Below are positions 21,763 through 32,757 of a stretch of 64,000 nucleotides of DNA, piece after piece. The stretch covers positions 780,954 to 844,953 of the forward strand of contig CP070837.1 in assembly GCA_020341815.1 (NCBI GenBank). Direction: 5' to 3'. Below the pieces are notes generated by a model, which worked only from the letters and a program-made list of their open reading frames with translations, had not been told where the DNA came from and ran no database searches. The DNA is from Candidatus Omnitrophota bacterium (lineage in GTDB: Bacteria > Omnitrophota > Gorgyraeia > JAFGHF01). The position numbers and the translations under genes are program-made. Positions within the stretch are counted from its first letter, which is position 1; each line of letters starts with the position of its first letter.

Positions 21763-24000
21763 TTATTTTAACCTTGAAGGAATTGCCTCTCTCCAGGTTT
21801 TGCTTAATTTATCCAGCGGCAGGTTAATTATCGTTTTCCCTTCGGATTGGACCGTAAGTTTTTCCCCGCCGACATTACCTAAAATCTGATACGGGACTGA
21901 ATGCTTCCTTGCTATCTCCTCCAAGCTGCCGAGATTATCCTTATTCAGAGAGACTACTATTCTGGAAGGCGCCTCGCCAAAGAGAATCTCATCCATCCTT
22001 ATATTGCCTTCTCCTATCTCCCCTAAAGTTATGGCTGCGCCCAGCATTTGATCTGCCTTTGTAATACAGGCCTCAGCCAAAGCAACCATCAACCCGCCTT
22101 CGGAACAATCGTGGGCGGAATTGACAACACTCTCCTCAATTGCCGAAAGCACAGCTTCCTGAACGGCCTTTTCTTTTTCTATATCTATCTGGGGATTGCC
22201 TTTCTTCTGGTTGTGCACCAGGTATAGATATTCGCTGCCTGAGAGGTCGGCTTTATTCTCACCCAAAAGGACTATTAAGTCACCTTCTTTCTTAAAATCC
22301 TGGGTAACACATTTATCTGCGTCTTTTATCAACCCTACCATTCCCACCATAGGGGTTGGGTCCACCGCCCCTTTGGGGTTTTCGTTATAAAAGCTGGCAT
22401 TGCCGCTTATAACAGGAGTATTCAGGGTTCGACAGGCCGCGGAAAGCCCTTCTATACACTTCTGGAACTGCCAGTAGTTTTCCGGCTTCATCGGATTGCC
22501 AAAATTGAGACCATCGGTAATCGCCAGGGGCCGGCCTCCTGCGCAGACTATGTTTCTTGCCGCCTCCGCCACCGCCATCATTGCGCCGTTATAAGGATTT
22601 AGATAGCAATAGCGGCCATTGCAATCCACGCTTATCGCTAAGGCCATTTTGGTATCCTTAATTTTAATCACGGCCCCATCGGAACCTGCGCCCACTATCA
22701 CTTCCTCTTTATCGATAGCGGTAAAATTTTTATAAGCTGATTCCTTGCTGGCAATAGTCGGAGAATCGAGCAACTGCAACAATACCTTATTAAAATCATC
22801 GGGCTCTGTTATGGATTCACGATTTAACTGCTGGGCCTCTTTTAGATAGAGAGGCTCTTTAACTTCACGATCATAAAGCGGAGCTTCCTCGGTAAGTGCT
22901 TTGGCCGGAACTTCGCAAACCACCACACCTTTTTCCTTAACGCGCATAATCTTATCATCCGTTACCTGTCCAATTTTTACGGCATTAACTTCCCACTTCT
23001 TTAATATGTCCAGCGCTTCCTTTTCTCTGCCTTCTTTTAAAATAGCCAGCATCCTCTCCTGAGATTCAGAAAGGAGAATTTCATAAGGCGTCATCCCCTT
23101 CTCGCGCTGAGGAATAAGGGCCACATCTATTTCAATACCGGTTGCGCTTCTTGAGGCTGTCTCGCAAGAAGAGCAAGTAAGCCCGGCCGCGCCCATATCC
23201 TGCATCCCCACGACCAGGTCTTTTTCTATCAATTCCAGACAGGCCTCTCTTAAGCGCCTTCCCAATTCCGGGTCGCCTATAGCCACAGCGCTCTTTTCCG
23301 AAGCCGACTCCTCCGTTATCTCCTTGGAAGCAAAACTGGCTCCGCCGACACCGTCTCTGCCCGTATCCCCTCCTATATAATATACAGGATTACCTATTCC
23401 GGAGGCTGCGCCTTTGATAATATTGCCATGCTTTACAATGCCCACAACAAAGGCATTAACCAGGGGGTTGCCCGCATAGCTCTCATCAAAATAGGTATCA
23501 CCCCCAACGGCGTTAATCTTGGCAATATTGGCATAATGTGCCAGGCCCCTGATAACTTCTTTAAAGAGGAATTTCACCCGCTCGTTATCTAAACTTCCAA
23601 ATCTTAAGGCCCCCAAAACCGCTACGGGCCTGGCTCCGGTAGTAAATATATCCCTAACGCACCCCCCTATGCCTGTGGCTGAGGCCTCAAAAGGCTCTAC
23701 TGCCGAGGGGTGATTGTGCGATTCTATCTTAAAGGCGACTCCCAAGCCATCGCCTATATCAACGATTCCGGAATTTTCTTCACCTGCACCGACTAATACA
23801 TGACTTGCCTTTGTAGGGAAAAGCTTGAATAATTTGCGTGAATTTTTATAACTGCAGTGCTCCGACCACATCGCCGAGAAAACGCCTAATTCCGTAACAT
23901 TCGGCTCTCTGCCGAGCAATTCCTTTATTCTACTAAATTCCTCTTCGCTGAGGCCCATTTCTTTTGCCAGCTCCACATCAACCTTAATCTCCGTTTCCAT
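21763..24000 (-). CDS. purL: Phosphoribosylformylglycinamidine synthase subunit PurL
   Basis: Track ORF from 24030; ATG at 24000 (METEIKVDVELAKEMGLSEEEF...) matches the usual PurL N-terminus and leaves a 20-nt gap after guaA. Confidence 0.9.
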   Translation of the reverse strand: METEIKVDVELAKEMGLSEEEFSRIKELLGREPNVTELGVFSAMWSEHCSYKNSRKLFKLFPTKASHVLVGAGEENSGIVDIGDGLGVAFKIESHNHPSAVEPFEASATGIGGCVRDIFTTGARPVAVLGALRFGSLDNERVKFLFKEVIRGLAHYANIAKINAVGGDTYFDESYAGNPLVNAFVVGIVKHGNIIKGAASGIGNPVYYIGGDTGRDGVGGASFASKEITEESASEKSAVAIGDPELGRRLREACLELIEKDLVVGMQDMGAAGLTCSSCETASRSATGIEIDVALIPQREKGMTPYEILLSESQERMLAILKEGREKEALDILKKWEVNAVKIGQVTDDKIMRVKEKGVVVCEVPAKALTEEAPLYDREVKEPLYLKEAQQLNRESITEPDDFNKVLLQLLDSPTIASKESAYKNFTAIDKEEVIVGAGSDGAVIKIKDTKMALAISVDCNGRYCYLNPYNGAMMAVAEAARNIVCAGGRPLAITDGLNFGNPMKPENYWQFQKCIEGLSAACRTLNTPVISGNASFYNENPKGAVDPTPMVGMVGLIKDADKCVTQDFKKEGDLIVLLGENKADLSGSEYLYLVHNQKKGNPQIDIEKEKAVQEAVLSAIEESVVNSAHDCSEGGLMVALAEACITKADQMLGAAITLGEIGEGNIRMDEILFGEAPSRIVVSLNKDNLGSLEEIARKHSVPYQILGNVGGEKLTVQSEGKTIINLPLDKLSKTWREAIPSRLK

Positions 24001-24020
24001 TCGTTGCCTCCTTTTCACTC

Positions 24021-25562
24021 TTACTCCCATTCTATTGTGCTCGGCGGCTTTGATGAAACATCATAGACCACCCGGTTTATCCCTTTAACTTCATTAATAA
24101 TACGGTTGGAAACTCGCTCTAAGACTTCATACGGAAGCTTTGCCCAATGCGCAGTCATGGCGTCAACGCTTGTCACGGCTCTTACGGCCACAACGTTTTC
24201 GTAAGTCCTCTTATCTCCCATTACACCCACTGTCTTAACCGGCAGAAACACGCAGAACGACTGCCAAAGCTTGCGGTATAACTTTGCCTTCTTTATTTCA
24301 TCGATTAAAATCCAGTCCGCTTCGCGCAGGATATCCAGCCGCTCTTTGGTAATTGCTCCTAAAACCCTTACCGCCAGGCCCGGGCCGGGAAAGGGCTGGC
24401 GATAAACAACCTCATCCGGCAGGCCCAATTCCTTGCCTACCAGCCTTACTTCGTCTTTGAATAAATCCTTTAAGGGTTCGATTAACTCAAATTTTAGATG
24501 CGGCGGCAAGCCCCCCACATTATGATGGGTCTTGATTGTCGCCGAGGGTCCGCCCAAGGCAGAGCGCGATTCGATTACATCGGGATACAAGGTGCCCTGG
24601 GCCAGAAACTTAAACTTCCCCAGCTTCTTGGCCTCTTTCTCAAAGACGCGGATAAATAATCTTCCGATAATCTTGCGTTTTAACTCCGGGTCTCTTATTC
24701 CCCTTAGTCCGTCTAAAAAAATATCCTGGGCGTTGACAGTTTTTAAATTAAGCCGGTAGTAATTCTTAAATCTCTTTTTTACCAGGGCAGCCTCATTTTT
24801 GCGCAAGAGGCCATTATCGATAAAGATAGCCTTTAAGTTCTTGCCTATTGCCTTATGTAAGAGTAAGGTCAGAACCGAGGAATCCACGCCGCCGCTTAAG
24901 GCACAGAGGACTTTATCTATGCCTATTCTCGCTCTCAATTCCTCGATGGAGCTTTTGACAAACGAGTGCATATCCCAGCTTTTTCGGCAGGCGGCTATAT
25001 CAAAGAGGAAATTGTTTATTATTCTCTTGCCTTTGGGGGTATGCATCACTTCCGGATGAAACTGCAGGCCGTAAAACCTTCTTTTCTCATCAGCCATGGC
25101 GGCGATCTTAGCATTTTCAGTCGAACCGATTATCTTAAATCCGTCCCCGAGTTTCGTAATCTTATCGCCGTGGCTCATCCAGACCGGCTCACTTTTATTT
25201 AAGCCCTTAAATAGGCCCTTTCTTGAGCTAACCTTAAGAATTGCCTTGCCGTATTCTCTGGCCCGAGCTCCGGAAACCTTACCCCCCAGCATCTTAGCCA
25301 TAAGCTGGGCACCATAGCAGATACCCAGAACAGGCACTCCCATATTAAAAGTATCCTTGCCGCAGGCGGGGCTGCGTCTTTCCGTAACGCTGGCCGGGCC
25401 GCCCGATAAAATTAAGGCAGAAGGCCTTCTGGATAAAAGCTCCTCGGCCTTAATATTATACGGCAGTATCTCTGAATAAACCCCGCATTCTCTGACGCGG
25501 CGGGCAATCAGGTGGGTGTATTGCGAACCGAAATCCAAAATCCCTACCCAGTCTTTATACAT
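24021..25562 (-). CDS. guaA: GMP synthase (glutamine-hydrolysing)
   Basis: 513 aa; class I glutamine amidotransferase domain (GICYGAQ) plus ATP pyrophosphatase SGGVDSS motif. Start overlaps the carB 3' end, so it may lie slightly downstream. Confidence 0.9.
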
Positions 25563-28500
25563 TCTTTCACTCCCGGGAGTACCCGATAATAATCCTGCAG
25601 GGCCTTGGGGAAAACCTTGGCTTTAGAGATAGCCTCAATGCCTTCGATGCTGGCCCCGGCAGCGGTTAAAGATGTAATGTAAGGTATTTTATACTGAATT
25701 GCCTTGATGCGGATATAACTGTCGTCGTATTTTCCGCTTCTGCCCAAAGGGGTATTAATAATCAACTGGACTTCACTATTCTTAATCGCATCGGCAATAT
25801 TCGGTCTTCCCTCGTGCAGCTTTCTCACCAGGGTATTATCTATCCCTTTTTCTTTCAAAAAGCGGCTGGTGCCTTCGGTAGCGCAGATATTGAATCCGAG
25901 TTTCCTGATGCGCTGGGCCAGAGGCACCAAAGCGGGCTTATCCTTATCGGTCACGGTTAAAAGGACGGCTCCCTTAACAGGCAATTTTGTGCCTGCGGCC
26001 TCTTCTGCTTTGTAGAAAGCCAGGCCGAATGTATCGGCAATACCCATTACCTCCCCCGTTGCCCTCATTTCCGGACCCAACAAAGGATCCACCTCGGGAA
26101 ACATATTAAAAGGAAAGACCGCCTCCTTGACTCCCACATAAGGAAGCGCTCGCTTCTTTAGTTCGGGAAAGTCGGAAAGCTTTTTACCCAGCATCAATTG
26201 AGTGGCTATGCGCGCTATGGGCATCCCGGTTATCTTGGAAACCAGAGGAACCGTGCGTGATGCCCTGGGATTGGCTTCCAGGATATAAACCTTATCGTCG
26301 CAGATGGCATACTGGATATTCATCAGCCCCACCACATTCAGCTCTTTGGCGATTTGCTCGGTGTATTTCTCAATCGTTTTCAGGTGCTTGGGCTTGATGG
26401 TGCGGGCAGGAATTACGCAGGCCGAATCCCCTGAATGCACCCCGGCCAGCTCAATATGCTCCATAATCGCAGCCACAAATGTCTCTTCCCCGTCGGAGAG
26501 GGCATCCACCTCTGCCTCAACGGCCTGCTCAAGGAATCTGTCAATCAGCATCGGATGTTCCGGGCTCACCCTTATGGCCTCCCGGGCATAAGTGCCTAAT
26601 CTCTCTTCATCATAGATAATCTCCATGCCTCTGCCGCCCAGGACATAAGAGGGGCGCACCATTAAAGGATAGCCGATTTTCTTAGCTATGCTTAAGGCCT
26701 CTTCCAGGGAACGGGCAGTGCCGCTTTCGGGCTGAAGTATGTTCAAGGCAATCATCTTTTCGCGAAAACGCTCTCTGTCCTCGGCCAGGTGAATGTTTTC
26801 CGGGCTGGTGCCTAAGATATTTATCCCATTATCTTTTAACTCCTGGGCGATATTCAAAGGGGTCTGTCCCCCGAACTGGACAATTACGCCTTCGGGTTTT
26901 TCCTTTTCATGAATTGCCAAAACATCCTCAACTGTTAACGGCTCAAAGTAAAGCTTATCGGAGGTATCGTAATCGGTAGATACCGTCTCGGGATTACAGT
27001 TAACCATAATTGACTCGAAAGCCTCGTCGCGCAGGGTGAAAGCCGCATGCACGCAGGTATAATCGAATTCAATCCCCTGGCCAATCCTGTTGGGCCCGCC
27101 GCCTAAAATCATTATTTTTCTATTTTTAGAGACTTCAACTTTATCTTCGGCGTTGTAAGTGGAATAATAATAAGCCGCATTTCCCACTCCGCTTACAGGC
27201 ACCGGCTCAAAGGCCGCCTTTTTCCCAAGTGCAAGTCTCTTAAGACGGACTTCTTTTTCCTTCACATTAAAAAGTCCGGCCAGATACTTATCACTAAAAC
27301 CCCATTCCTTGGCTTGAGTGAGCTTCTCATCGGGAAGCTCCTGCCAGTTATATTCAAGCAGCTCTTCCTCAAAATCAACCAGTTCTTTCATCTGTTTAAT
27401 AAACCAGCGGCCGATGAAGGTAAGCTGATAGAGCTCTTCTATATCTGCACCTTTGCGCAGGGCCTCATACATCAGAAAGACGCGCTCACTTGAAGGCTGA
27501 ACCAGCCTTTCTTTTAAGGCCTCCAGGGAAAGCGATTTGAAATCCTTAGCACCTCCTAAGCCATATCTTTTTATCTCCAGCGAGCGGATGGACTTCTGAA
27601 AGGCCTCTTTAAAGTTCTTGGCAATGCTCATTGCCTCACCCACGGCCTTCATCTGCGTCCCTAAGACATCCTTAGCGCGGGGAAACTTTTCAAAGGCCCA
27701 GCGGGCAAACTTAATTACTACATAGTCCCCCCAGGGCTCGTATTTCTCCAATGTCCCTTTTCGCCAATAAGGAATCTCATTCATAGTTATACCTGCAGCC
27801 AGCTTTGTGGAAATACGCGCAATGGGAAAACCGGTCGCTTTGGAAGCCAGGGCGGAAGAACGGGATGTGCGGGGATTAATCTCGATTACCACCAGGCGGT
27901 CGTCTTTTAGGTTATGGGCAAACTGGATATTTGTCCCGCCGACCACGCCAATTGCATCCACTATTCTATAAGAAAGCTCCTGCATCCTTTTCTGTAATTC
28001 TTCAGGGACGGTAAGCATAGGGGCGGAGCAAAAGCTGTCTCCCGTATGCACGCCCATGGCATCTATATTTTCAATAAAACAGACGGTGATTTTTTGATTC
28101 TTCTGATCCCTGACTACTTCAAGCTCAAGCTCCTCCCAGCCCAGAACAGACTCTTCAACCAAAACCTGATGCACCAGGCTCACCGCCAGTCCACGGCTGA
28201 CAATCGTTCTTAATTCTTCTATATTATAGGCAATTCCGCCGCCGGTTCCGCCCATGGTATAAGCAGGACGAAGCACTACCGGATAACCCAACTTCTCGGC
28301 TATTTTTTCTGCCTCTTCCACGGAATAGCAGGGCTCGGACTCAGCGATAGGTACGTCCAAGTTCTTCATCGTCTCTTTAAAGGCAATTCGGTCCTCACCG
28401 CGCTCAATAGCATCGGCCTTCACCCCGATAATCTCCACGCCGTATTTTTCCAATATCCCTGCCTTATATAGACTGGAACTGAGATTGAGACCGGTCTGGC

Positions 28501-28774
28501 CTCCTAAGTTTGAAAGGAGCCCATCGGGTCTTTCTTTTTCGATAATCTTCTCCAGGCTCTCAACCGTCAAGGGCTCTATATATGTCTTATCCGCCATGCC
28601 CGGATCCGTCATTATGGTGGCAGGATTGGAATTGACCAGCACCACCTCATATCCTTCTTCTTTCAAGGCCTTGCAGGCCTGGGTGCCGGAATAGTCAAAC
28701 TCACAGGCCTGACCGATAATAATAGGCCCTGAGCCGATAATTAACACCTTGTGGATGTCTTTTCTTTTTGCCAT
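25544..28774 (-). CDS. carB: Carbamoyl-phosphate synthase large subunit
   Basis: 1076 aa; duplicated ATP-grasp halves, N-terminus [33 protein letters not shown]. Confidence 0.95.
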
Positions 28775-28821
28775 AGTTCCCCTCTTATTCTTTCTAGATT
28801 AAATAAGATAACTAAGGGCAT

Positions 28822-28851
28822 ATTATATCATATTCTTTAACTATCTTGCAA
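28822..28851 (-). promoter_or_regulatory. Candidate promoter upstream of carB
   Basis: Minus strand reads TTGCAA-N18-TATAAT with TGA immediately upstream of the -10 (extended -10); followed by RBS AAGAGGGGAACT and the carB ATG. Confidence 0.35.
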
Positions 28852-28878
28852 TAGCCAAAAATTGAGTCTGTCTCAACT

Positions 28879-30471
28879 TTATCTCCCATCAAGAATTGCC
28901 TCGGCCTCCCGGCGATAAGCATCCATCACATAAGGGATGCCGGAGACTTTCGCTGCTTCCTCCGTCAAAGCCATTAAGTCTTCTCTGGAAATCGTCTCTA
29001 TCTTGAAATTTCTGCTGCCGGCCATAAGTTGCTGCAGGCCAACCCTGATTTTCTGGACAAAAGAATAAATCCCCAGGGCCCCCAGAGGAATATTATCTAC
29101 ATCTTTACCGTATTTATCTCTCAACTCTTCGTAGCAGACAAAAATCTCCTTTACCGTTTTGCCAAATTCCGATACGGTAGGTGGAAGCTTATTTTCTTTA
29201 AGCCATCTGCCGATATTTTTACCAACGAAAGCGGGAATTACAAGGGCGCGGCCCATACATACCGCTTTAACATATGGGGCGCCCATTGCTATTACTTTGA
29301 AGATATGGTCTTCCGTGGAAAAACCGCCGGCAATAGCGATATCGGGCAGGTGCATACCTTTTTTCGCCAGTTTTTGACAGAACTCATAAGCCAGGGCCTG
29401 TAAGTAAAAGGTAGGGATGCCCCATTCTTCCATCATTCTCCAGGGGCTCATTCCTGTGCCGCCGGGCGCCCCGTCAATGGTCAAAAGGTCAAGCTGAGCC
29501 ATTGAGCTATATTTAACAGCCATAGCCAATTCTCTCATCGAATAAGCGCCTGTTTTTAAACTGATGCGCTTGAACCCCAGGTCCCTTAAGCGCTTAACCT
29601 CCTTCAGGAAGGCATCTTCAGATACAAACCCCAAGCGCGAATGCCGCTCAAACTCTTTTATAGCTCCGTCTTTAAACGCCTCTTGATTGGCGTGCAGGGA
29701 TGGATCGGGGGTTACGATATAACCTCTTTTCTGAAGCTCAAGGGCGCGCCTTAAGCTCCCTACTTTTATTTCTCCGCCGATACATTTGGCGCCCTGGCCC
29801 CACTTTAATTCAATAGCATCCAGCTTATGCTGCTTCCTTATATATTCAGCCACGCCCAGGCGCGTATCCTCCACATTCATCTGCACTAATATTTCGCCAT
29901 AACCTTCGTGGAATCTTTTATAAGTTTCTATCCGCCGGTCCATCTCCGGAGATTTTTTAATCTTTCCTTCTGCGTCCAGCCGAAGGCCCGGGTCAATGCC
30001 GCAAACATTCTCCCCGCAGACTAAAGTAATTCCGGAAATAGCCGCTCCGACTGCGCAATGCTCCCAGTTCTTAGCGGCAATTTCCGTTGAACCAAGGGCA
30101 CCGGTGAAAATAGGCGCTCGCATTTTAATCTTTTTCTTCCAGCCATACTGTGTTTCGGTATTTACATCGGGAAATCTCGCCGTATCGGGGCTTGCCTCCA
30201 CCCCTTCAGGCAAACCCTTTGCCCCTTGCGCATACCCCTGGATATTCAGGTGTGAATAATCCAGGGGGTAATTTTTATCGGCTGCGGCCGTTATCTCGCC
30301 GTAAGGGCCGGGATAAATCACCTCCCGGCCCCTGAAAGAGGCCTTAAAGATTTCGCAACTGCCCCTGCATCCGTCAATACAGCGGGAGCATATCCCCGAA
30401 CCCGGTACAACATGCTTAGAACGATTAAATGTTCTTGTTGCATCGTTTGCATTCGGTCTTTGTAAATTCAT
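28879..30471 (-). CDS. Glutamate synthase domain-2-like FMN-dependent oxidoreductase (GltB-like) with N-terminal Cys cluster
   Basis: 530 aa; GltB central-domain-like sequence; N-terminal CSRCIDGCRGSC; RBS AAGGAGGAA before the ATG. Confidence 0.7.
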   Translation of the reverse strand: MNLQRPNANDATRTFNRSKHVVPGSGICSRCIDGCRGSCEIFKASFRGREVIYPGPYGEITAAADKNYPLDYSHLNIQGYAQGAKGLPEGVEASPDTARFPDVNTETQYGWKKKIKMRAPIFTGALGSTEIAAKNWEHCAVGAAISGITLVCGENVCGIDPGLRLDAEGKIKKSPEMDRRIETYKRFHEGYGEILVQMNVEDTRLGVAEYIRKQHKLDAIELKWGQGAKCIGGEIKVGSLRRALELQKRGYIVTPDPSLHANQEAFKDGAIKEFERHSRLGFVSEDAFLKEVKRLRDLGFKRISLKTGAYSMRELAMAVKYSSMAQLDLLTIDGAPGGTGMSPWRMMEEWGIPTFYLQALAYEFCQKLAKKGMHLPDIAIAGGFSTEDHIFKVIAMGAPYVKAVCMGRALVIPAFVGKNIGRWLKENKLPPTVSEFGKTVKEIFVCYEELRDKYGKDVDNIPLGALGIYSFVQKIRVGLQQLMAGSRNFKIETISREDLMALTEEAAKVSGIPYVMDAYRREAEAILDGR

Positions 30472-30497
30472 GACGTTCCTCCTTCTTAGAAAAAGAA

Positions 30498-30535
30498 AAG
30501 CCCTCTTTTAGACATCTATGTCCAAAAAAGGGCTT
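30498..30535 (-). terminator. Leader hairpin T2 (18-bp imperfect palindrome) followed by a U-rich tract, directly 5' of the gltB-like RBS
   Basis: Plus strand aagccctcttttagacat-ct-atgtccaaaaaagggctt, arms complementary at 16/18; on the minus-strand RNA it is followed by UUUCUUUUUCU and then the SD. Confidence 0.45.
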
Positions 30536-30542
30536 CCTTGCC
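30531..30542 (-). promoter_or_regulatory. ANTAR-target-like hexaloop hairpin GGC-AAGGAA-GCC overlapping the 5' arm of T2
   Basis: Minus-strand RNA GGCAAGGAAGCC: 3-bp stem with 6-nt loop having A at position 1 and G at position 4; its 3' arm shares nucleotides with the T2 5' arm. Confidence 0.35.
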
Positions 30543-30567
30543 TTATTTTTCCCTTACAAAGGGAGCT

Positions 30568-30599
30568 AAAAATAAAAAACCCCAAACATTTCTTTGGGG
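30568..30599 (-). terminator. Rho-independent terminator T1
   Basis: Minus-strand RNA CCCCAAA-GAAAUG-UUUGGGG (7-bp stem) followed by UUUUUUAUUUUU. Confidence 0.6.
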
Positions 30600-30609
30600 C
30601 TGCTTTGCC
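30598..30609 (-). promoter_or_regulatory. ANTAR-target-like hexaloop hairpin GGC-AAAGCA-GCC overlapping the 5' arm of T1
   Basis: Minus-strand RNA GGCAAAGCAGCC: 3-bp stem, hexaloop with A1 and G4; shares 2 nt with the T1 5' arm. A second hexaloop hairpin AAC-AAUGAA-GUU lies 14 nt upstream (30624..30635). Confidence 0.35.
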
Positions 30610-30641
30610 TTATTAACTTTATTAACTTCATTGTTGCTTTA

Positions 30642-30669
30642 AGTATACCACAAAAAGATATTTTGTCAA
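30642..30669 (-). promoter_or_regulatory. Candidate promoter for the gltB-like leader transcript
   Basis: Minus strand reads TTGACA-N16-TGgTATACT (perfect -35, extended -10), between the GAF-ANTAR stop and terminator T1. Confidence 0.4.
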
Positions 30670-30688: not shown

Positions 30689-31393
30689 TTATTTCCCTTT
30701 CCTTAATTCATAAGAAAGTATTATCGCCTCGGCGATATCTTTCATCTGAACCCGCTTATCCATGCTGGATTTACGCATTAAATTGAAGGCTTTTTCTTCG
30801 CTTAAATTTTGCTCCTTCATCAATAATCCTTTTGCCTTTTCTATTTTTTTTCTTGATTCTAATTCTTCCTGAATAATCTTGGTCTTAACCAAAAGCTCCG
30901 TGTTCATAATAGCTACAGCCGCCTGATTGGCCACGGCGCTTAAAAGGTCGATATCGCTTTTCGTAAAATTATACCTGCTTGTAGTATAACAATTAATTAC
31001 CCCGATTAATCTTCTTTTCACCATCATCGGGACACTAAGCATAGAGACTAATTTTTCCTTCTTTGCCAACTTTCTTTCCTTATACTTGGGGTCTTTAACG
31101 ACATCCGGGATAGCTATTGGCTTTCTCTCTTTTGCCACCAGGCCGACAACACCCTCTCCCAAGAGCAAAGTCCTTTCTTTCAAGTATTCTTCACTCATGG
31201 CCTGGGTAGCCCTTATCTTCAACTCTTTGGTTTTTTCGTCCAAAAGCCACAATGAACATATCTTTGCCCCCATTACATTGGCTGTCAATGTAACAATGAG
31301 CTTAAGCACATCCCCAAGATAAAGGTCGGAAGTTATGGCCTTGCTTATCTTGCTTAATGTATCGACATAGTTTTTGTAAGAAGACTGCTTCAT
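30689..31393 (-). CDS. GAF-domain / ANTAR-domain RNA-binding antitermination regulator
   Basis: 234 aa; N-terminal GAF-like region and a C-terminal segment resembling the ANTAR helical domain (KIEKAKGLLMKEQNLSEEKAFNLMRKSSMDKRVQMKDIAEAII). Terminator T1 lies downstream. Confidence 0.65.
   Translation of the reverse strand: MKQSSYKNYVDTLSKISKAITSDLYLGDVLKLIVTLTANVMGAKICSLWLLDEKTKELKIRATQAMSEEYLKERTLLLGEGVVGLVAKERKPIAIPDVVKDPKYKERKLAKKEKLVSMLSVPMMVKRRLIGVINCYTTSRYNFTKSDIDLLSAVANQAAVAIMNTELLVKTKIIQEELESRKKIEKAKGLLMKEQNLSEEKAFNLMRKSSMDKRVQMKDIAEAIILSYELRKGK

Positions 31394-31416: not shown

Positions 31417-32757
<1,341 letters not shown>

Follow-up and report, generated by a model that had tools for sequence, protein, structure and literature searches.

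The stretch analysed here, 64,000 nucleotides (nt) of the Candidatus Omnitrophota contig CP070837.1 (the window in what follows), encodes on its minus strand a one-component GAF-ANTAR regulator and a gltB-like gene, and 217 nt of that strand separate the stop of the regulator open reading frame (ORF; 30689-31393) from the ATG at 30471. This interval probably specifies a leader RNA that works as an ANTAR-type attenuator of transcription, dependent on a protein and equipped with two serial checkpoints. The anatomy of the leader, the mutual exclusion of its alternative folds, their energetics, the conservation in relatives and the link with nitrogen genes are established at the level of sequence and computed structure, and from them we infer that the adjacent GAF-ANTAR protein would bind the leader and would do so in a signal-dependent way.

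Anatomy of the leader

Read in the direction of transcription, the leader consists of a promoter, the hairpin P1, a linker, the hairpin P2 overlapping the terminator T1 (together module 1), a degenerate hairpin P1', the hairpin P2' overlapping the terminator T2 (module 2), a Shine-Dalgarno sequence and the ATG (Table 1). A first-pass annotation of this DNA had placed the promoter, P1, T1, T2 and the Shine-Dalgarno sequence on the minus strand, and all are present where it located them. The promoter is the top site of a consensus scan over 5.5 kb (11/12 positions), with a predicted +1 at about A30635. The stem proper of T1 spans 30601-30578 and that of T2 30537-30496, and both are among the strongest terminator-like sites of the scan. 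The length of the linker is due to a 9-nt tandem duplication, the two copies of AAGUUAAUA lying 9 nt apart (30608-30628, minus strand).

Each terminator is preceded by one of the two near-identical 19-nt elements described in the first-pass annotation (30614-30596 and 30547-30529). The two share 16 of their 19 bases, and both fold as a GGC-hexaloop-GCC hairpin whose loop has A in position 1 and G in position 4 (A1/G4; AAAGCA and AAGGAA). The predicted overlap of their 3' arms with the 5' arms of the terminators is likewise borne out, the GCC of P2 lying in T1 and that of P2' in T2. The repeat search returned the elements as an 18-nt direct repeat, 89% identical, with copies 67 nt apart. The objection that they might represent a common intergenic repeat is contradicted by the distribution of the 18-nt pattern, which occurs exactly at these two leader sites alone in the 64 kb, with one other match carrying 3 mismatches. 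A REP (repetitive extragenic palindromic)-like repeat was rejected on the same ground, as there are only two copies and both are in the leader.

Table 1. Predicted features of the leader and the adjoining genes (positions within the window).
Feature	Position	Strand	Remarks
Sigma-70-type promoter, TTGACA (30669-30664), 16 nt, TGgTATACT (30650-30642)	30642-30669	-	11/12 match, extended -10
P1 hairpin, AAC-AAUGAA-GUU, A1/G4 hexaloop, transcript 5' end	30624-30635	-	within the 31.5-bit model match
P1-P2 linker, 14 nt	30610-30623	-	repeat search: 9-nt tandem duplication, AAGUUAAUA x2
P2 hairpin, GGC-AAAGCA-GCC	30598-30609	-	3' arm GCC doubles as T1 base
Terminator T1, 9-pair stem AGCCCCAAA/UUUGGGGUU, loop GAAAUG, then UUUUUUAUUUUU	30568-30601	-	terminator scan
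Degenerate P1', CCC-UUUGUAA-GGG, 7-nt loop, U1, G4	30551-30563	-	same position in relatives
P2' hairpin, GGC-AAGGAA-GCC	30531-30542	-	loop and 3' arm overlap the T2 5' arm
Terminator T2, 19-pair stem, GC base GCCC/GGGC, then U-rich UUUUCUUUUUCU	30489-30537	-	terminator scan
T2 apex, GAC-AUAGAU-GUC, further A1/G4 hexaloop nested in the terminator	30511-30522	-	
Shine-Dalgarno AGGAGG (30483-30478) and ATG (30471-30469)	30469-30483	-	
GAF-ANTAR one-component regulator gene, 234 amino acids (aa)	30689-31393	-	Pfam GAF 1.4e-22, ANTAR 7.7e-20
gdhA, NADP-glutamate dehydrogenase	31417-32757		NCBIfam 3e-233
Putatively regulated gltB-like gene, 530 aa, N-terminal Cys cluster	28879-30471	-	Pfam Glu_synthase 3.5e-15

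Two further features of the leader sequence were considered. A frame of 21 codons (30571-30630, minus strand) begins at an AUG inside the P1 loop and closes in the U-tract of T1; this frame is probably meaningless, since no ribosome-binding site precedes it and most relatives have no AUG in their P1 loops. Leader-peptide attenuation was rejected, as this AUG, at about +6, is the sole one, has no Shine-Dalgarno sequence and is not conserved. Complementarity also exists between the pyrimidines that follow T2 (UUUCUUUUUC) and the sequence around the Shine-Dalgarno motif (GAAGGAGGAA; 30476-30499, minus strand), and the two are paired in the predicted folds; this pairing is probably incidental, because it is not conserved in the related locus L020. 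Rfam at gathering thresholds gave no match in the window; the highest-scoring match below threshold was the rimP leader, with 27.8 bits where gathering requires 47, and no ANTAR-target family was among the matches.

Mutually exclusive folds and their energetics

The predicted fold of the leader has an energy of -52.8 kcal/mol, compared with -36.6 +/- 3.6 kcal/mol for shuffled sequences (z = -4.5). For each module, the terminator fold and a fold with enforced antiterminator hairpins were compared with ViennaRNA. The terminator form of module 1 reaches -13.4 kcal/mol, against -7.7 kcal/mol with P1 and P2 enforced, a difference of 5.7; for module 2 the values are -34.9 and, with P2' enforced, -24.3 kcal/mol, so that the terminator is favoured by 10.6. 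The folding check suggested by the first-pass annotation thus came out in favour of the terminator conformers, which are the default fold in both modules. As hairpins, T1 and T2 have energies of -12.2 and -25.5 kcal/mol, respectively, and the isolated P1 and P2 have +1.3 and -2.8 kcal/mol; the latter two therefore cannot compete without protein. P2 and T1, like P2' and T2, share an arm, which makes the two folds of each module mutually exclusive. The formation of P2 costs T1 its four bottom pairs and leaves the remaining stem off the U-tract, and the formation of P2' costs T2 its GC-rich base.

The hexaloop at the T2 apex is, by its position, compatible with the terminator fold. Similar apex loops occur in relatives, such as GGC-AGAGAU-GCC (L020, 4393-4404; L164) and AGGC-AAAGACAG-GCCU (L165, about 2350-2375), and the nearest relatives keep an A1/G4 apex loop on a different stem. 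G is found at loop position 4 in 8-10 of 24 T2-type apices and in 1 of 21 T1-type apices, with a loop definition that is post hoc. The T2 apex might serve as a second site nested in the terminator, or as a decoy displayed by the terminated RNA. Taken further, the hexaloops might serve mainly as a sink: terminated RNAs displaying P1 and the T2 apex would titrate the regulator in the manner of EutX/Rli55, giving feedback instead of or besides antitermination. The compatibility of the apex with the terminator, the enrichment of ANNG-type apices in T2-type terminators and the existence of decoy RNAs with ANTAR sites, EutX/Rli55 among them (PMC8934654), would fit such a role. However, P2 and P2' exclude the terminators, which is the hallmark of antitermination, and only some 40% of T2-type terminators show the apex pattern, under a loop definition chosen after the data, so we regard a sink as very improbable.

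Conservation of the leader in related genomes

Relatives of the regulator were fetched as 80 genomic loci, and a covariance model (R1), for which 46 dual hairpins from relatives but none from the window were used, was run with filters off. The two modules of the leader rank first and second in the 64 kb, which answers the covariance search proposed in the first-pass annotation: module 1 scores 31.5 bits (E = 1.4e-4) and module 2 (30560-30529) 19.5 bits (E = 0.04), and all matches outside the leader have E > 1, these E-values being rough. Neither the 18-nt pattern nor R1 has further sites beyond the leader across the 64 kb, and therefore no local regulon is visible. Among the 80 loci, 80 of the 82 matches lie on the strand of the regulator, and 12 match pairs, with a spacing within about 170 nt, fall in 11 loci. 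The double checkpoint postulated earlier for this locus hence has counterparts, tandem modules being found in at least 11 loci, and the predicted double terminator is a recurrent design of the lineage, not an oddity of this locus. Because a hairpin scan supplied the rows both of the model and of the pair counts, their 100% pairing is circular, and it is the variation in pair type, the position and the context that are informative. Within the 46-row alignment the closing C-G pair is kept in 45/46 rows in both hairpins, and the outer pairs vary among AU, CG, UA and GC.

The arrangement around the hairpins is conserved as well. In many loci a promoter, P1, a short linker, GGC-ANNGNN-GCC and a C-rich terminator follow 3' of the orthologous regulator gene, and a second GGC-loop-GCC with a long GCCCUUUUU...AAAAAGGGCUUUUU terminator often comes after this first unit. 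The P1 of relatives has the form AAC/GAC/UAC-RNNGNN-GUU/GUA at the same place, with loops that are mostly AAAGAA and carry no AUG. In 20 of 25 related leaders a TTGACA-16/17-(TG)-10 promoter lies upstream of P1, with 5-7 nt between the end of its -10 box and the P1 stem, from which it follows that P1 starts at about +1. When the only criterion for choosing leaders was a strong promoter no more than 140 nt behind the stop codon of the ortholog, 23 distinct ones were obtained, and 16 of these have hairpins at the transcript start; the T1 stems of the promoter-selected leaders differ in sequence, always pair and always precede a U-run.

These data bear on the simplest alternative, that T1 is a plain terminator of a gdhA/GAF-ANTAR operon, the promoter spurious and the hairpins chance products of an AT-rich spacer. 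The regulator gene has no other terminator after it, stems of 3 bp arise easily by chance, and the heuristic scan gives many false matches in coding DNA. Against this stand the promoter between the stop codon and T1, which is the best in the region, the lack of anything comparable under the covariance model elsewhere in the 64 kb, and the occurrence of the promoter-P1-P2-T1 unit at sites of relatives that have no upstream regulator gene (L001 6424, L006 2374, L010 2195, L027 7413, L048 2467, L066 7680). We find this explanation scarcely credible, and T1 as a mere operon terminator was rejected in view of the conserved position of the promoter upstream of it, which persists even where no regulator gene lies upstream; the refuting condition attached to the first-pass annotation is contradicted in the same way.

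The proposed connection with nitrogen assimilation is borne out by dozens of Omnitrophota genomes in which the unit recurs, both 3' of GAF-ANTAR orthologs and at further nitrogen genes. The genes behind the leaders of relatives include gltB-like genes, gdh, ammonium transporters, an ECF (extracytoplasmic function)-like sigma factor and small secreted proteins. In L020, L161 and L164 the gltB-like gene itself stands behind the same leader as in the window, and in L165 behind one with a single module. Beyond the 80 fetched loci, look-ups of those regulator proteins that are closest to the present one supplied three with the gene order mnmG-gdh-regulator-gltB-like-carB; the tandem leader of L020 recurs in two of them, and the third has a single module.

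Variation around this theme was seen in several groups of loci. The gene after the tandem leader in L005, L006, L008, L013, L015, L019, L021, L025 and L058 encodes an ECF-like product some 175 aa long that matches Sigma70_r2 and GerE weakly, and in L006, L013, L015 and L025 the gene is followed by a pair of hairpins of a second class and a terminator, an arrangement suggestive of a cascade in which an antiterminator controls a sigma factor. Three serial hexaloop hairpins with one terminator are found about 50-150 nt after the regulator gene in L071-L079 (Atribacterota), upstream of a distant gdh homologue, and at 2255-2305 in L035; the window is therefore not alone in having more than two ANTAR loops in a row. 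L011, L042, L044, L063 and L070 have another conserved leader, AUUGUAGAUACAAUAUAUAGUAC...CCAAGAUAUUGUGUAGG, with a strong promoter after the regulator gene instead of ANTAR hairpins.

The position of P1' in module 2 was compared separately. Relatives have CCC-AUUGUA-GGG (L066), CCC-GCGGCC-GGG (L050), CCC-GUUGGC-GGG (L058) or GUCCC-GCGGAA-GGGAC (L027) at this place; CCC-NNNGNN-GGG stands at P1' in about half of the tandem leaders, and the rest have no clear P1'. Judged by this comparison, CCC-UUUGUAA-GGG looks like the decayed first hairpin of module 2.

The GAF-ANTAR regulator and its paralog

The ANTAR domain of the regulator (PF03861, 7.7e-20, residues 175-225) aligns to those of EutV (6wsh), Rv1626 and NasR, with the RNA-contacting Arg, Lys and aromatic residues kept and Phe in place of the stacking Tyr of EutV. 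In the structure of the EutV-RNA complex, Arg and Lys contact the flipped-out G4 (PMC8934654). The AlphaFold model (predicted local distance difference test, pLDDT, 82.7) comprises a GAF fold, one helix of 51 residues and a three-helix ANTAR bundle, which in the model is the usual layout of sensor, coiled coil and ANTAR. The best partial NCBIfam matches of the GAF domain are PtsP (1.2e-21) and NifA (2.7e-16); its PDB sequence matches include 3ci6 and 3trc, and these two structures of the PtsP GAF are also the top Foldseek hits. The GAF domains of PtsP (EI-Ntr) and NifA sense 2-oxoglutarate or glutamine. The proximity of the regulator's own GAF domain to the PtsP/NifA type makes a nitrogen-metabolite signal appear plausible, and by analogy the ligand may be guessed to be 2-oxoglutarate or glutamine. 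The best 120 database relatives of the regulator are 75-100% identical to it, and those with a source name are labelled Omnitrophota or Omnitrophica; across the fetched loci the identity is 62-84%, with labels mainly of Omnitrophota and few of Atribacterota or Thermodesulfobacteriota.

Many relatives, L025 (1212-1877) among them, also encode a second GAF-ANTAR paralog, 46-59% identical, which in many genomes lies directly upstream of the gltB-like gene (L081, L083, L085, L086, L090, L094-L097, L101, L103, L107, L108, L111); in L090 both paralogs adjoin. The leaders of the paralog contain CAC-loop-GUG and GAC/AAC-AAAGGC-GUC/GUU hairpins. An xAC-loop-GUx hairpin occurs upstream in 14/15 paralog genes and GGC-loop-GCC in 0/15, and orthologs of the regulator have GGC-loop-GCC downstream in 30/83 loci. 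A metagenome scan with the gltB-like protein returned mostly genomes in which the gene lies behind the second paralog or another hairpin class; it informed on context but not on covariation within this exact leader, of which the regulator look-ups gave closer copies. In the present lineage the gltB-like gene has apparently come to stand directly under the leader of the ortholog.

The paralog raises the possibility that only module 1 is an ANTAR switch, and that T2 with its lone P2' is a constitutive leaky terminator or answers to another factor, e.g., the second paralog with its own hairpin class. In accordance with this, module 2 has no canonical P1, lone hairpins are bound weakly in the NasR system, and L165, with the same synteny, has a single module. 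P2', however, shares the GGC-ANNGNN-GCC form with P2 and with the P2' of at least 11 other tandem leaders, and it overlaps T2 just as P2 overlaps T1. Moreover, a single hexaloop is now held to be the minimal ANTAR site (PMC8934654), the paralog is tied to the other hairpin form by the counts given above, and the window contains no paralog. A switch confined to module 1 is in our opinion unlikely.

Genomic context

The regulator gene ends 20 nt before the promoter and is probably co-transcribed with gdhA, which lies 23 nt upstream of it. The 530-aa product of the gltB-like gene gives a partial Pfam match to the glutamate-synthase flavin mononucleotide (FMN) domain, and NCBI lists it, for a Candidatus Omnitrophota metagenome-assembled genome, as 'FMN-binding glutamate synthase family protein'; a PDB sequence search with this protein matched no solved structure. 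The same-strand genes that follow are carB, guaA and purL (21763-28879, minus strand), whose enzyme families typically use glutamine-derived nitrogen. No terminator was found in the interval between the gltB-like gene and carB, and a promoter-like TTGCAA-18-TATAAT with TG is present at 28822-28851 (minus strand). All 31 ORFs of at least 150 aa between positions 72 and 36824 (the first 36.8 kb) are on the minus strand. Neither tRNA genes nor a second ANTAR gene were found within the 64 kb.

A model of two-step antitermination

The favoured attenuator could operate as follows. A strong constitutive promoter would start the RNA, whose first bases would fold as P1. Without active regulator, T1 would halt most polymerases after about 65 nt, those escaping it would meet T2 at about 145 nt, and the gltB-like gene would be kept tightly off. 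An active GAF-ANTAR dimer would bind the A1/G4 hexaloops, P1 first and P2 next, and its binding would keep the weak 3-bp GGC/GCC stem of P2 closed, sequestering the GCC of the T1 base. With this GCC withheld, the remaining stem would be held off the U-tract, resulting in read-through, and at P2'/T2 the same switch would be repeated. Since both terminators must be overridden, the output would approximate the product of two read-through probabilities; two checkpoints would make the basal expression lower and the response steeper.

The model can be set against the rule derived from EutV, NasR and AmiR, i.e., two A1/G4 hexaloops with P2 overlapping the terminator (PMC3369931). The claim of the first-pass annotation that the leader has the geometry of an ANTAR attenuator is supported: module 1 conforms in every testable respect except the length of its linker, and module 2 conforms in most, without a canonical P1. 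Among the 46 aligned relatives, most linkers measure 3-8 nt (range 3-12), compared with 14 nt in the window. In the EutV system, a 14-nt linker or an extension of the linker by 20 nt abolished induction and antitermination (PMC3369931, PMC8934654), and for this reason module 1 may be weakened by its linker, or the regulator may tolerate the extra length.

Several observations weigh against the attenuator as modelled. The linker falls outside the short range of the eut linkers (5-12 nt), and R1 leaves CCC-UUUGUAA-GGG unpaired, in keeping with the missing canonical P1 of module 2. NasR binds a lone P2 weakly, at about 12 uM. The promoter is a consensus match only, and any ligand named for the GAF domain is conjecture. 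The targets of relatives, Amt and gdh together, do not discriminate between nitrogen limitation and nitrogen excess as the inducer. To these points should be added the rough E-values of R1 and the circularity of the pairing in its rows, both mentioned above.

A more ambitious joint reading combines a relay of four or five loops over the two terminators, a new geometry at the T2 apex and a role of the regulator as a master nitrogen sensor. One GAF-ANTAR dimer would be handed along P1, P2, the degenerate P1', P2' and the T2 apex. An ANTAR loop at the very tip of a T2-type terminator could represent a new geometry, either a second contact or a built-in decoy. The regulator would then act as the master sensor of these uncultivated phyla and read 2-oxoglutarate or glutamine through its PtsP-like GAF domain; the gltB-like gene, gdh, amt and the ECF-like sigma factor would be under its control, and a paralog with a hairpin class of its own would act beside it. 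As a whole, this joint reading is possible, though rather doubtful.

Comparison with known systems and significance

The nearest counterpart of the cis element is that of the GnfK/GnfR system of Geobacter sulfurreducens (PMC2995071). GnfR binds CAGGCAANGGCGCC, that is GGC-AANGGC-GCC, overlapping the terminators of nif, glnK and amtB leaders (PMC2995071), and a GnfR-type site, GGCAANGNNGCC, was found here directly before and overlapping the terminator of a nitrogen gene. The element is thus near-identical, and the targets of GnfR (nifH, nifEN, glnK and amtB leaders) are nitrogen-assimilation genes, as here. In contrast, GnfR is a REC-ANTAR protein, a phosphorylated response regulator activated by a histidine kinase, whereas the regulator in the window is a one-component GAF-ANTAR protein; it also comes from another phylum, and its putative leader has two terminators and a sigma-70-type instead of an RpoN-dependent promoter.

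The EutV/EutW system of the Enterococcus faecalis eut operon resembles the leader in its two A1/G4 hexaloop hairpins, the overlap of P2 with the terminator and the conserved closing pair (PMC3369931, PMC8934654). The eut linkers, however, are 5-12 nt long and length-sensitive, against 14 nt here, and the eut terminators are spread through the operon under a REC sensor, whereas here they are stacked in one leader and the sensor is GAF. In the EutV-type systems a single hexaloop has been described as the minimal ANTAR site, with hexaloops bound successively (PMC8934654). NasR/nasF of Klebsiella and AmiR/amiE of Pseudomonas are one-component or partner-controlled ANTAR antiterminators of nitrogen-related operons, with the regulator gene adjoining the target leader, as in the window. 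Their sensors are a NIT domain or an AmiC-controlled pseudo-receiver, and unlike the leader described here they have a single terminator per leader.

The same gene class has been linked to ANTAR sites in Firmicutes, where hits were predicted upstream of genes for glutamate synthase or glutamate synthase-like proteins, glutamine synthetase, amt and PII (PMC3369931). These hits come from Desulfotomaculum, Carboxydothermus and Desulforudis, with 13 in six transcription units of D. acetoxidans (PMC3369931, Fig. 9, supplementary table). They often lie beside an ANTAR regulator gene, several per unit; on the other hand, they are predictions only and concern REC-ANTAR regulators, none is from Omnitrophota and none is a GAF-ANTAR/target pair. 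According to a 2025 review, AmiR, NasR, EutV and Rv1626 are the only characterised ANTAR proteins. The literature searched contained no characterised GAF-ANTAR protein and no RNA target or signal for one, and the papers mention the architecture only.

The logic of serial control has a parallel outside the ANTAR family. Tandem riboswitches and attenuators, such as tandem T-boxes and the tandem arrangements for thiamine pyrophosphate or glycine, act as serial checkpoints that lower the leak and sharpen the response. The two-checkpoint logic would be the same in the leader; the difference is that in those systems the RNA senses the ligand or tRNA directly, whereas here a protein would read the modules.

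The mechanism is textbook ANTAR, and what is new is the phylum and the uncharacterised class of sensor; the gain lies in breadth and testability and not in principle. A conserved GAF-ANTAR gene with an adjacent conserved target offers a ready pair for binding assays and a ligand screen. For Omnitrophota and Atribacterota, which have no cultured model, the findings point to the control of nitrogen assimilation by antitermination at the RNA level, often over two serial terminators.

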